From Acholeplasma sp. (GTDB lineage: Bacteria > Bacillota_I > Bacilli_A > Acholeplasmatales > UBA5453), in the NCBI GenBank assembly GCA_036677365.1, contig JAVBWN010000016.1, positions 44,488-108,487 on the forward strand: DNA of 64,000 nt, read 5' to 3'. A program made the position numbers and the translations under genes. Below are positions 58,434-62,942 of this stretch, piece after piece. The number at the start of each line of letters is the position of its first letter. The stretch's first letter is position 1. Under the pieces are notes generated by a model. That model did no database searches, had not been told where the DNA came from, and worked only from the letters and a program-made list of their open reading frames with translations.

Positions 58434-59720
58434 ATGAATCAAATCAAATGCCCCCATTGTGGCGAAGAGTTTACTTTAAATGATGAAGGTTATTTAAACA
58501 TCATCAATCAAGTCAAAACCAAAGAATTCAATCAAGAGATCCACCAAAGACTCGAACAGCTGAAAGTTCAAAATCAAAAAGACATTGAGATTGAAAGAAC
58601 CAAAGTGGAATCCAACTTCTTACAAAAATTATCTTTAAAAGAACAAGAACTCCAATCTTTAAAAGATAAAATCTTAAACTCAGAACAAGCCAAATCTTTG
58701 GCGGTTTTAAGTGCTGAAGGCAAATTAAAAGAACAACTTAAACAACAAGAACTTACCATTCAACAACTTCAATCCAAAATCGAAACGGTTTTAAAAGATA
58801 AACAGCTCGAAACCCAAGCAGTATTATCGAAAAAAGAACAAGCCCTTCAAGAACTTACCGCACGGATTGAACTAGAAAAGAAACAAGCAGAACTTGAAAA
58901 AGCATCGATCAAACAACGATACGATGAACAGCTCAAACAAAAAGACGAAGCGATTGCTTATTATAAAGACCTTAAAACCAAACTATCGACCAAGATGGTG
59001 GGTGAAACCTTAGAACAACACTGTGAGTATGAATTCAATAACCTCCGTGCCTTAGCTTTCCCAAGAGCCACCTTCGGTAAAGATAATGATATTCAAAGTG
59101 GTTCTAAAGGGGACTATATTTACCGTGAAGTCGATGAAAATGGGGTTGAAATCTTATCGATTATGTTCGAAATGAAAAATGAACAAGATGAAACAGCCAC
59201 CAAAAAGAAGAATGAGAACTTCCTTAAAGAACTCGATAAAGACAGAAACGAGAAGAAGTGTGAATACGCAATTCTCGTATCATTATTAGAAAGTGAGAAT
59301 GAACTCTATAATAATGGTATTGTCGATGTTTCTCATATTTACCCAAAGATGTATGTCATCAGACCTCAATTTTTCATTCCAATGATTACACTCCTTAGAA
59401 ACGCCTCATTAAACGCTTTGAAATACAAACAAGAAGCCGCTTTGATGCGTAGACAGAATATTGACATCACCACATTCGAAGACGATTTAAATGCCTTTAA
59501 ACAAGCCTTCTCTAAGAATTATGAACTCGCAAGTCGTAAGTTTGGTGACGCGATTGATGAAATTGATAAAACCATCAAATCGCTTCAAAAAACAAAGGAA
59601 TATCTAATATCAAGTGATAACAACTTAAGACTCGCCAATGATAAAGCAGACAGTTTAACCGTGAAAAAACTCACCAAGAATAACCCAACGATGAAGAAGA
59701 AGTTTGAAGAGTTAGAGTAA
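58434..59720 (+). CDS. DUF2130 domain coiled-coil protein
   Basis: IKCPHCG, long coiled coil, [29 protein letters not shown]. Confidence 0.85.
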
Positions 59721-59733
59721 GGGGGACGAATAG

Positions 59734-60192
59734 ATGAATAAACATGTCAAAGATACACTTTTGAAACAAGGGATTCCCAATCAAGTTGAACGAATGATTG
59801 TAGATGAACAAGAAATTCAGCACCTGGTTGAATTAGAACAAGCGGGGGCATTGCCTAAAAATATCAAAAAACAACCCCAAGTGATTAAAGACTTGAATAC
59901 CATTCAACAGTTGTCAGAAAACTACTTAAACCATCAAACACTGCCAGAAAACATTGAACGTGTTGAAACAAAAGATCAGTATGGCAATCAAAGATTTTTA
60001 TATATTAAAAAAAATACGTTTGACTATTTTATCCTTGAAACCTTAGACCAAAATGACATAGAATTGTTATTAAAAGTACAAGAAAACACTTATATGAAGC
60101 GCATATCGTTTGTCTTGTTATATTTTATGTGGCTATCCATCATTAGTTTATCGATTTCATTGCTTTGGTTCATCTATGTAATATCCAATTGA
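59734..60192 (+). CDS. Hypothetical protein with C-terminal TM helix
   Basis: 152-aa ORF with GGGGG RBS; hydrophobic C-terminus. Confidence 0.65.
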   Translation: MNKHVKDTLLKQGIPNQVERMIVDEQEIQHLVELEQAGALPKNIKKQPQVIKDLNTIQQLSENYLNHQTLPENIERVETKDQYGNQRFLYIKKNTFDYFILETLDQNDIELLLKVQENTYMKRISFVLLYFMWLSIISLSISLLWFIYVISN

Positions 60193-60262
60193 TCATCTAT
60201 AACATTAATATTAATTCGATTTATCCAAATATAAAAACCTCTGTTTTAGCAAACGAATGCTA

Positions 60263-60372
60263 TGAAATGATCCCCTTAAAGTAGACACTACAAATAATTT
60301 AAGTTTGTAGAAGTTTACAGAGAGGGGATTTTTTCTTTATGCATAGAACATCAAGATTCAGTAAGGAAGATA
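60263..60372 (+). mobile_element. IS3-family left-end remnant with a stub of orfA
   Basis: TGAAATGATCCCCTTAAAGTAGACAC resembles IS3/IS150 inverted repeats; folds back onto AGGGGAT; ATG 60339 reads MHRTSRFSKED. Confidence 0.55.
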
Positions 60373-60386
60373 GAAGGTTATGTTAT

Positions 60387-60453
60387 AAAAAAAATGCTCT
60401 TTCGCTAGAATATAGCAAAAAAGCATATAAACTCCTATGAGTTTTGATCTTCG
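60387..60453 (-). ncRNA. Candidate small RNA downstream of the Abi gene (possible antitoxin)
   Basis: Minus-strand TTGACT-17-TATAAT, stem-loop AAACTC/GAGTTT, 14-bp terminator stem and U-tract. Confidence 0.6.
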
Positions 60454-60470
60454 TATGTATTATATACCAC

Positions 60471-61367
60471 TCAAACAAAATAGTCAATTATTTCAGTAAG
60501 TGCTTGAAATCTTGCTTTTATCAAAGTGTTTGACAACATAAAATCTCCATTATCATCTAGAGGTGTTTTAAATATAAGCCTTGCACTGGTAAGATACTGT
60601 CTCGATCTAAAAATATCAGGGTTTATCTTGTGAAAAACATACAACATAGTGATAAAATCGTGCAAGACAGGGCTTTCAATAATTTTTCTGCGTCTATCTG
60701 ATTTCATCCCATTAGAGGAAATAAAAGTGGATATTTCACTTGAGTATCTAAAACCCGGTATGGAATATGGCTTCTTTAGACTATTTAATAGACAGTTATT
60801 ATGTGCTACTGCATTTCTAAGAAACTTTATGTGATGCATTATATGTGAGTAATTATCAGTTGAGGGATATTTATTGAAATAGAAGGAGTATAGTGAAAGG
60901 AGTTCTCCAAAACTTAAAACCTCAGAGATTGTCCATATCGAAAAGTTGCTTTCATATTTAAGTATTAACTCGTTGCAAACAGATTGTGATTGTTTCTTTT
61001 TTATGCTTGATTCGATATTTGGATATGATTTCAGAAAATCGCTTACCAATGAATATCCATCCTCTTTATCATTCAAAGTTATAGATTTAATTAAATTTTG
61101 TTTGATTAAATGTTCTAAATGTATGACCATTTTTAAACAAAACTCTCTAAATTGACGATCAATGTCTGCCATAGTTTTTAGGTAGTTGAAATCAAGATTG
61201 ATATAGGTTCCATCGGATTTTTTGTCATAATTTTTGCAGTAGGATTTTAGACGAAAATAACTATTTTTGTTCATCAAATAGCTTATTACAGTATCTTTAT
61301 CATGCCATTTGAAGGTAATTCCCTTCGAAGATAAATGATTAAATTGATTTTCGAAATCTAACTTCAT
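60471..61367 (-). CDS. Abi_2 (AbiD/AbiF-like) HEPN protein
   Basis: YFRLKSY, D..FR, EHLIK, W..SEVLSFGEL, HEPN Rx4H motif LRNAVAHNN. Confidence 0.88.
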   Translation of the reverse strand: MKLDFENQFNHLSSKGITFKWHDKDTVISYLMNKNSYFRLKSYCKNYDKKSDGTYINLDFNYLKTMADIDRQFREFCLKMVIHLEHLIKQNLIKSITLNDKEDGYSLVSDFLKSYPNIESSIKKKQSQSVCNELILKYESNFSIWTISEVLSFGELLSLYSFYFNKYPSTDNYSHIMHHIKFLRNAVAHNNCLLNSLKKPYSIPGFRYSSEISTFISSNGMKSDRRRKIIESPVLHDFITMLYVFHKINPDIFRSRQYLTSARLIFKTPLDDNGDFMLSNTLIKARFQALTEIIDYFV

Positions 61368-61439
61368 TGTACCTCACCGGCCTTCGCTAATTAATTATAA
61401 CACTAAATAGATAATTTATACTATATTGAAAAATGACAT

Positions 61440-61480
61440 AAAAAAGAGACTTCAAAGTTAGGAGTCTCTAGTCTCTTTTT
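61440..61480 (-). terminator. Terminator of the Rgg-like gene
   Basis: Minus strand AGAGACT...AGTCTCT followed by T-tract. Confidence 0.6.
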
Positions 61481-62395
61481 TCAGTACTTTTTCCCTTTAT
61501 TAGATAACAACGTTTCAAAATCGAAACCATAATCTTTTAATATCAGCTTATTAAATCTCTCATATGATGCATCACTGGGCTTAACTTTGGTTGCGTGATA
61601 TAGCTTTTCTATGTATTGATGAGATTCTTCGATTTTGCCTAAGTGTTTATAAGCAAGACTTAGAAAGTAATAGGTCAAATCCAAATTGAAATAAGACTCA
61701 TTGAATTCACATGCTTTTAAAACTTCATTACAAATCTCAATCACTTTGACATCGTCTTTATTCATCCCATACATTTTTGCAACCCCAAGGCTGACACTAT
61801 TCATTTGGTAGAAGTCTTTTGAGATGAAAGTATATGCCCCAGTAGTGATGATCTGATAGAGTTTATCCATGATGGGGAATCTTTCTTCATTCGGGATGAA
61901 GTTTAAGAGTAGAGATAATCCAACCAATTCAACCCCATTCATGACATCGTGTTTTAAAATGTCTGGGTAGTGAATCAACTCAGCACAGACATTGGCTAGA
62001 TGAGCATTGGGGTATTTTTTTAAGTAATAATCCAGTTGTAGGATGTTTAATTTGAAATAAACGTCATTGTTTTGATCATACATGACCTCATTACTTAAAT
62101 CACGCATCAATGCTTCAGCTTTTTTAAAATCGTGTGCGATGATGGCTTGGCTAAAGACATCCAACCGGTTCGCTTGATCGATTCTTTTACGTTCAAGTTC
62201 ATACACCATATATAGCGGTTCTACATTCACACGGTCACACAGTTCAACAAACATCTTAAAGGGCATCTCAGATGTACCATACAAGTATCTTTTATATTGA
62301 CGTAACGAAACAACCCCTTCGATGAAATTCACCATCGAAAGGTTTTTTTTCGCTCTAAAGTCATCGAGTAAAACGCACATTTCTCTTGAAATCAT
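61481..62395 (-). CDS. Rgg/RRNPP-like regulator (XRE HTH plus helical repeat domain)
   Basis: FRAKKNLSMVNFIEGVVSLRQYKRYLYG HTH; TPR-like YYFLSLAYKHLGKIEES; ATG 62395 behind GGAGG. Confidence 0.7.
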   Translation of the reverse strand: MISREMCVLLDDFRAKKNLSMVNFIEGVVSLRQYKRYLYGTSEMPFKMFVELCDRVNVEPLYMVYELERKRIDQANRLDVFSQAIIAHDFKKAEALMRDLSNEVMYDQNNDVYFKLNILQLDYYLKKYPNAHLANVCAELIHYPDILKHDVMNGVELVGLSLLLNFIPNEERFPIMDKLYQIITTGAYTFISKDFYQMNSVSLGVAKMYGMNKDDVKVIEICNEVLKACEFNESYFNLDLTYYFLSLAYKHLGKIEESHQYIEKLYHATKVKPSDASYERFNKLILKDYGFDFETLLSNKGKKY

Positions 62396-62480
62396 GTGTT
62401 GCACCTCCGAAAGTGTCACATGTGCACTCTCGCACCCCCTACAACAAACGTTATGATTCACGTGTCGAGGGAGAATATTA

Positions 62481-62627
62481 GTGAAAAAGAAAATCATTGC
62501 TATGGTATTACTCGGGTTTATCATGGTCGGTTCACTGGTTCAATTGATCAGTAAGCCTGTCCAAGCGGATCATCCAATCGTATTAGAATTCGATGAACCA
62601 GACCCAGGTAAAAAAATCGGCGGATAA
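62481..62627 (+). CDS. 48-aa secreted peptide precursor (absent from the ORF track)
   Basis: GAGGGAG RBS, GTG start; MKKKIIAMVLLGFIMVGSLVQLISKPVQA-DHPIVLEFDEPDPGKKIGG. Confidence 0.7.
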   Translation: MKKKIIAMVLLGFIMVGSLVQLISKPVQADHPIVLEFDEPDPGKKIGG

Positions 62628-62645: not shown

Positions 62646-62942
62646 GTGAATCATATGGATTGGACAAAGTATCAAATCGAATTGACAGGTATGACCAAAA
62701 CGGTTGAAAACATTACCAAGGACCCCTATATTATAGGATACATGGAAATCCTTAAAAATTCAATCCAAGACCACGAAGTGAATCTTGTACACCTAACATC
62801 TAAAAAGATGGTTGATTGGTACCAATCCCACCTAAATGACATATTAAGTGACCAATTTGTTTATGACAAAGAAAATCACAAGAAAACTTTCGCATTACTA
62901 CTAGAACTCTTAAACGAGTCTAAAAGGTTAACAGCGAATTAA
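62646..62942 (+). CDS. Hypothetical protein
   Basis: 98-aa ORF with GAGG/GGAG RBS, followed by a terminator. Confidence 0.65.
   Translation: MNHMDWTKYQIELTGMTKTVENITKDPYIIGYMEILKNSIQDHEVNLVHLTSKKMVDWYQSHLNDILSDQFVYDKENHKKTFALLLELLNESKRLTAN

Follow-up and report, generated by a model that had tools for sequence, protein, structure and literature searches.

The window, by which we mean the whole stretch of 64,000 nucleotides analysed here, carries a gene for a predicted Abi_2 protein, and a promoter-like sequence lies across the stop codon of this gene. Is the DNA behind the gene only its terminator, or does it code for a separate small RNA that neutralises the protein? The features discussed below are as follows.

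59721..61494, strand not assigned: strain-variable cassette with toxin gene, RNA, repeat and convergent 152-aa ORF, delimited by comparison with a contig of a related strain
59734-60192, plus strand: convergent 152-aa ORF, absent together with the toxin from the related strain; no Pfam or PADLOC match
60262..60368, strand not assigned: short hairpin repeat, MITE-like, outside the toxin/RNA system (further genome copies; z -4.0)
60386..60452, minus strand: candidate antitoxin RNA of about 65 nt (fold and covariance model; start placed by the spacing from the -10 box)
60459..60487, minus strand: small-RNA promoter (11/12 consensus; spacing in homologues; codon bias)
60471..61367, minus strand: abiF-like gene, Abi_2 (AbiD/F) HEPN ribonuclease of 298 aa, predicted homodimer (PF07751, PADLOC AbiD, fold)
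60801..60818, minus strand: HEPN catalytic motif R184-NAVA-H189 (homologue alignment)
61394..61402, minus strand: putative toxin-gene promoter, extended -10 TGnTATAAT (picked by eye)

The toxin gene and its product

The 298-aa protein matched PF07751 with an E-value of 6e-22 and 79.2 bits (curated cut-off 25.6 bits), and in PADLOC it matched AbiD (E 7e-21). Its structure model (pLDDT 89.9) aligned to PbAbiF (8vz6) over 258 residues with a Z score of 16.4 and an rmsd of 3.3 A. The next best Z score was 7.8, and the structures that followed 8vz6 were Cas13 proteins with Z scores of 6-8. Foldseek with the same model again placed 8vz6 first (E 0.003, TM 0.61). The sequence identity between the toxin and PbAbiF is 13-14%, and a search of the PDB sequences with the toxin alignment matched no chain at E <= 1. 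Judging from the profile match and the structure model, the protein is an Abi_2/AbiD-F HEPN RNase with the PbAbiF fold.

The intact RNAVAH motif reported in a preliminary description of this DNA is present as R184 to H189. R184, N185 and H189 showed no variation across 30 homologues, and the motif RNA[AV/S]AH, with RxxxxH intact, was found in 60 of the 60 loci described below. The homodimer prediction scored 0.88 and the best of three controls 0.51, a result that possibly stems from the likeness to the solved structure 8vz6; the mark used for this score was attained by 20 of 30 solved homo-pairs and by 1 of 23 single chains. Contact agreement between runs was at least 96%, with a pLDDT of at least 91. 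The motif residues 185-193 are located at the predicted interface, a placement that may likewise owe to the likeness to 8vz6.

The extended -10 element at 61394..61402 is probably the toxin gene's own promoter; its weak -35 kept it off the list from the promoter scan. The ribosome binding site GAGGT is located at 61375-61371 on the minus strand. The leader of the toxin gene is short and unstructured (fold z -0.5), and no upstream RNA or attenuator was found in it. The claim that no protein antitoxin lies nearby was upheld in so far as the neighbours have no antitoxin match in Pfam or PADLOC; the convergent 152-aa ORF, which is unannotated, is part of the cassette. The neighbouring genes in the window are not conserved beside the homologues of the toxin.

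The small RNA and its promoter in the window

The small-RNA promoter consists of the -35 box TTGACT (60487-60482), a spacer of 17 bp and the -10 box TATAAT (60464-60459), all on the minus strand and base for base as first described. The -35 box is written by the toxin codons I294-D295-Y296, while the -10 box lies just beyond the stop codon. With 11 of 12 consensus positions, this promoter was the top one of 23 found in a scan of 58.5-63 kb. Because 23 promoters in 4.5 kb is near chance (expected 18.8 +/- 5.1), the window locus alone proves little. A lone locus of this kind could be a chance promoter ahead of an ordinary terminator, which the comparison of homologues makes unlikely.

The candidate RNA begins with a single-stranded 5' leader, GAAGAUCA, followed by the A/U hairpin 1 (AAACUC-AUAG-GAGUUU, 60444-60429), a terminator hairpin (60426-60394) and a U-tract. 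The stem of the terminator hairpin has 14 bp with exactly two U-G pairs and is followed by U8; stem-loop, stem and U-tract were all found at the positions previously proposed. The fold of the 69-nt RNA has an energy of -21.3 kcal/mol (z = -5.3), which was equalled by 0 of 200 shuffles.

When the 64 kb were searched with a covariance model built without the window and with filters off, the window RNA was the best match (26.1 bits, E 0.0014); elsewhere in the genome, a terminator with no relation to it scored as high (26.2 bits). Under default filters the window RNA went undetected. It does not have the GUGCCUGCAC apex found in most of its relatives, and its 5' leader is identical to those of L010, L025, L060 and L066. 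The window RNA thus appears to be a divergent member of the family, to which it is assigned by its position, its spacing and the identity of its 5' leader. Rfam gave no meaningful match to the candidate RNA. RF03085 had no match at E <= 10 in 59.9-61.7 kb of the window, nor in the whole genome, in which 150 of 766 candidates were scored.

Conservation of the RNA downstream of toxin homologues

We found 173 homologues of the toxin, the best being 78, 53, 51 and 47% identical and the others 33-44%. Four close homologues (P0002-P0005, 47-78% identity) are outside the set of loci, which comprised 128 loci and, with the window and two duplicates from its own genome, gave 131 rows with a match. After 11 rows were removed as truncated or with a short 3' flank, the rest was collapsed at 90% identity to 60 loci, the window included. 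The homologue loci have 27-40% protein identity and are mostly from Clostridia-type genomes and prophages.

The preliminary description had named a lack of conservation behind homologues as grounds for giving up the RNA. Nearly all homologues have, 3' of the gene, a promoter, a leader resembling GAACAAAA, an A/U hairpin, a GC-rich hairpin, often with the GUGCCUGCAC apex, and a U-tract, all of which are thus kept at 27-40% identity. A two-hairpin covariance model, which had been suggested as a check, was trained on 53 loci with the window excluded. It matched 13 of 17 held-out loci; the misses were L006, which belongs to another subfamily, L122, with a flank of 67 nt, L129 and L131. The RNA is located downstream of the toxin in 57 of 59 dereplicated loci, a count that includes the 53 loci of the training set, and L129 and L131 are without it. 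An earlier covariance model (R1) had caught the terminator stem only and was discarded.

In an alignment of 75 rows, fitted to the model with weak rows included, 90.8% of the cells were paired, compared with 40-55% in slid controls, and 15 of 17 base pairs showed two-sided changes. The bulk of this covariation is in the terminator hairpin, as any terminator would show. In hairpin 1 the base is conserved and the loop varies, from 3 to about 20 nt. The comparison of loci indicates that the promoter and the two-hairpin RNA of about 65 nt are a conserved gene and more than a terminator.

RF03085 was not found at its gathering threshold in 20 homologue loci. No conserved upstream element or motif was seen across the 60 loci, and antisense pairing of the RNA to a conserved toxin leader was rejected for this reason. 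A second copy of the RNA upstream of the toxin was found in L113 only, among the 60 loci. In L057 the promoter and RNA are tandemly duplicated (2449-2507 and 2682-2738), and the duplication includes a remnant of the final toxin codons. In seven loci (L015, L023, L026, L038, L051, L089 and L094) the toxin ORF runs into the 5' leader of the RNA with an EEQK-like ending, so that coding sequence and RNA overlap.

Selection on the promoter inside the toxin gene

Relative to the stop codon, the RNA core lies anywhere from -25, inside the ORF, to +108 nt, and its spacing to the promoter is constant: the sigma70 promoter sits 8-10 nt before the RNA, while the position of the stop codon floats. The patterns detected a core in 56 loci, of which 51 had a promoter with at least 9 of 12 consensus positions ending 5-13 nt before the core, compared with 2.0% of 10,791 random positions; for at least 10 of 12 positions the numbers were 44 of 56 and 0.5%. 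The core patterns were chosen after the sequences had been seen, and one core (L128) was mis-picked. On a FastTree phylogeny of 58 labelled loci, the promoter changed between lying in the ORF and lying outside it at least 8 times (mean of shuffled labels 19.6).

For a codon test we took the loci by protein alone. At the column of D295 of the window toxin, 32 of 60 loci have Asp, and in 25 of these 32 it is encoded by GAC, compared with 27% in the gene background and 12-41% in nine other Asp columns. The codon before this column is NTT in 30 of 32 loci (background 42%); NTT followed by GAC spells TTGAC. The loci are related to one another, and nominal p-values overstate the significance. The spacing and codon usage imply that the RNA promoter is under selection, including a constraint at the codon level on the embedded -35 box.

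The gene following the toxin and RNA shares their strand in 21 loci, has the opposite orientation in 24 and is missing in 15. The 44 downstream ORFs include ten phage integrases and one serine recombinase and are otherwise varied. Given the fixed spacing, the codon bias and the variety of downstream genes, a bare terminator is therefore unlikely and a leader of the downstream gene is all but excluded.

Copies of the RNA without a toxin in phages

We scanned viral contigs with five RNA-first patterns and scored the hits with the covariance model; these scans are biased by the patterns and give no true ratio of linked to orphan copies. Among the matches listed, 25 of 29, 77 of 80 and 91 of 100 pattern-scan loci failed the model. 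Strong RNA matches (47-65 bits) were found in at least 16 viral records, at least 2 of them with the toxin and at least 14 without a toxin match nearby. These at least 14 toxin-less records represent at least 8 distinct elements. L410 carries the toxin, and L419 keeps only its last ~100 residues. A search of the whole record for the toxin, which used L093 and L419 to confirm that it works, found none in 13 of 14 orphan records among the matches listed, 5 of which are at least 95% complete; L368 was checked within the locus only. A blastn search of the phage collection with one RNA copy gave no match.

L171 (372-545, minus strand) contains a 28-nt match to the toxin promoter of L014, fused to the toxin's last codons and an intact RNA. 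By this comparison, L171 is a deletion scar from which the toxin is gone and in which the RNA was kept. TTGAC-TATAAT is retained in L171, L176/L195 and L191, which the pattern selected for; copies of the L237 type and L315 have no clear promoter. The RNAs of toxin-linked loci closest to the orphans L356/L362, L171 and L176 are those of L025/L060/L066 and L014/L027. The orphan RNA is part of a tRNA array in three records that are related to one another (127, 70 and 4 kb) and represent a large phage lineage:

L356 1400-1640, minus strand: orphan RNA in a phage tRNA array, directly before tRNA-Pro
L362 1402-1640, plus strand: the same
L382 1400-1640, minus strand: the same

These copies follow a tRNA-like element missed by ARAGORN, and they are better conserved than the tRNA behind them. 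Processing of the tRNAs would release the RNA copy.

The orphan phage RNAs may be decoys or relics. We hold it possible, if somewhat doubtful, that phages captured the antitoxin RNA and express a toxin-less copy as a decoy that disarms the AbiF defence of the host. Antitoxin mimics have precedents, in the available portions of the sources, in the pseudo-ToxI of PhiTE (PMC3475682) and the orphan DarG antitoxins of T4-like phages (PMC11257639). If true, the decoy would be an RNA anti-defence against a HEPN toxin of the type proposed as ancestral to Cas13, derived from a self-promoted downstream RNA family outside Rfam. Phages carrying orphan antitoxin RNAs against AbiF are a lead that can be tested.

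Proposed mechanism and alternative explanations

We consider it probable that the RNA is a trans-acting antitoxin which binds the HEPN dimer and is kept in excess by its own promoter, so that loss of the RNA frees the RNase. The locus would be a type III (RNA-protein) toxin-antitoxin or abortive-infection module that belongs to the AbiD/F family and whose layout is decoupled. The preliminary reading of a type III-like system gains support from the downstream conservation, the covariation, the codon constraint and the PbAbiF fold; for toxicity, RNA-protein binding and phage defence we infer from relatives. The toxin mRNA would start at its own upstream promoter and probably end at the shared terminator, while the strong sigma70 promoter over the last toxin codons would yield an abundant RNA of ~60-65 nt. 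Bound to the AbiF homodimer, this RNA would block the composite HEPN active site, as suggested by PbAbiF-AbiFr and AbiFCd-RCd22. The RNase would be set free if the supply of RNA failed, through phage infection or loss of the element, or if the RNA were displaced by a phage factor; it would then arrest growth, which would limit phage spread or stabilise the mobile element. Because the RNA is located downstream, attenuation of toxin transcription in the manner of RCd22 and the lactococcal leaders is impossible; control would have to be by stoichiometry in trans.

The simplest alternative is that the element is the 3' UTR of the toxin gene with an intrinsic terminator and an incidental promoter. 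A hairpin with a U-tract is a standard terminator, the covariation is strongest in that very hairpin, and promoter-like sites are common in AT-rich DNA, as the scan of the window showed (23 against 18.8 expected). A terminator does not account for a promoter whose distance to the core is fixed in 51 of 56 loci against a background of 2%, for synonymous codons biased toward the -35 box, or for the conservation of the single-stranded 5' motif, the extra hairpin and the apex sequence. In addition, promoter and RNA were duplicated as a unit (L057), occur also upstream (L113) and were kept without the ORF (L171, L176, L191). We regard this explanation as very unlikely. That the promoter and hairpins serve the following gene as a leader or attenuator, or make a mobile-element regulatory RNA that has nothing to do with the toxin, is hardly credible: the integrases and the recombinase among the downstream ORFs and the toxin-less phage copies would fit it, but the identity and orientation of the downstream gene vary, it is convergent in the window, and in loci collected by the protein the RNA was present in 57 of 59.

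The RNA might also bind AbiF as a cofactor, sensor or guide in defence, rather than or besides inhibiting it, as a step toward the Cas13-like use of RNA. In the accessible part of PMC11381338, a lactococcal AbiF without its flanking sequence had no anti-phage activity; Cas13 proteins are the next structural neighbours of the toxin, and hairpin 1 combines a conserved base with a variable loop. The variable part is, however, a self-paired stem, too short and too structured for a spacer, and the characterised relatives are inhibitors, with AbiF described as having no targeting specificity (PMC12737573 and PMC12948488, as far as these texts were available). We judge such a role improbable.

Relation to known systems

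The published systems are described here from partial texts of the sources cited. PbAbiF-AbiFr from Prevotellaceae (8VZ6; PMC12737573, PMC13064643, PMC12373285) shares with the window system the whole-chain fold, the HEPN RxxxxH motif and an adjacent small ncRNA, and perhaps also the homodimer, which is predicted for the window protein; one review places that RNA upstream, whereas the window RNA is downstream. AbiFCd-RCd22 of the Clostridioides difficile prophage phi027 (RF03085) is likewise an Abi_2 toxin beside a promoted, terminator-ended small RNA. RCd22 is sigma-A-promoted and neutralises AbiFCd in trans through direct binding (10.1101/2025.04.15.648962; published in a journal as PMC12373285). 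It is located upstream, is co-transcribed with the toxin gene, attenuates it and contains two RF03085 motifs; the window RNA, in contrast, lies behind the toxin gene under a promoter of its own, is unable to attenuate and has no match to RF03085. The lactococcal AbiD/AbiD1/AbiF proteins belong to the same PF07751 / PADLOC AbiD family and have a short flanking promoter-terminator element, which is upstream (PMC11381338) and not downstream as in the window subfamily. ToxIN and AbiQ follow the same logic of an RNA antitoxin, but ToxN does not belong to the HEPN proteins, and the upstream ToxI is made as an array of tandem repeats that is then processed, whereas the window RNA is a single-copy two-hairpin RNA. 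The window system is one that probably works like AbiF-AbiFr, with a protein of the Abi_2 family, and is not an upstream system of the RF03085/RCd22 type.

AbiF with an RNA has thus been published as a general system (AbiF-AbiFr, RCd22). What is added here is the downstream self-promoted layout, an RNA family outside Rfam and the orphan phage copies. In the literature as far as its text was available, neither an AbiF RNA that is downstream and self-promoted nor an orphan AbiF RNA in a phage is described; the work of Zilberzwige-Tal et al. (2025, Cell) on PbAbiF-AbiFr may already cover downstream RNAs. Its covariance models AbiF5_iter3.CM and diverse_rna_xinsi.CM, named in PMC12804078, may already include the family of the window RNA. 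AbiF-RNA pairs are proposed ancestors of Cas13, and, in the partial texts, few of their RNAs are characterised and these are described as upstream. The loci reported here represent a second, well-sampled architecture, with a downstream RNA, decoupled transcription and a promoter in the toxin's last codons, and the 60-locus covariation set is ready for work on structure and specificity.

Genomic setting and other Abi_2 genes

A single contig (125 kb) of a related strain joins positions 59720 and 61495 of the window with 173 other bases between them. The GC content is 29.7% in the toxin gene and 38.3% in the genome. No member of the toxin subfamily turned up in 21 further genomes of the family or, at E <= 1e-20, in 306 further genomes of the order. 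By these comparisons, the toxin/RNA cassette is an acquired, strain-variable one. Four sequencing runs, examined as contigs only, covered the flanks and left the gene and RNA uncovered; the strains in question, whose shares of the runs were small, probably lack the cassette, and the runs do not bear on expression. The hairpin repeat at 60262-60368 has 7 further copies in the genome (8 in total) with 80-96% identity.

Upstream of the toxin and outside the variable cassette, a 347-aa protein (61481-62524, minus strand) has no Pfam match; inspection by eye suggested an HTH-like start and helical repeats. A 98-aa ORF (62646-62942, plus strand) resembles the N-terminal part of PADLOC spbK (E 1e-13) and is possibly a truncated defence gene.

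A second Abi_2 gene of this genome (L006, G000:C12; 313 aa, motif RNACAH) has promoted RNAs on both sides:

L006 1110-1200 and 2190-2290, minus strand: near-identical two-hairpin RNAs of another family, no Rfam match

Copies on both sides were also seen in L113, L145 and L166. In 30 further Abi_2 loci of the phylum the window-type RNA model had no match exceeding 23 bits, and RF03085 was absent from the 20 of them that were scanned. These loci have other short promoted RNAs upstream, downstream or on both sides (9 of 30 could not be parsed). The window-type RNA thus appears specific to this toxin subfamily, and a flanking RNA seems general to the Abi_2 family, with a sequence specific to each clade.

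Weak matches of the model elsewhere in the genome, one (C3, 26.2 bits) before a DEAD-box helicase gene and two within other loci, were set aside as ordinary-looking terminators, as were two short matches of 31-35 bits among 151 genomes of the order. Behind two distant Abi_2 genes, L131 and L168 share a third downstream promoted RNA, GCGG..GTCTGCGGACTA..CCTAGG, followed by a terminator.
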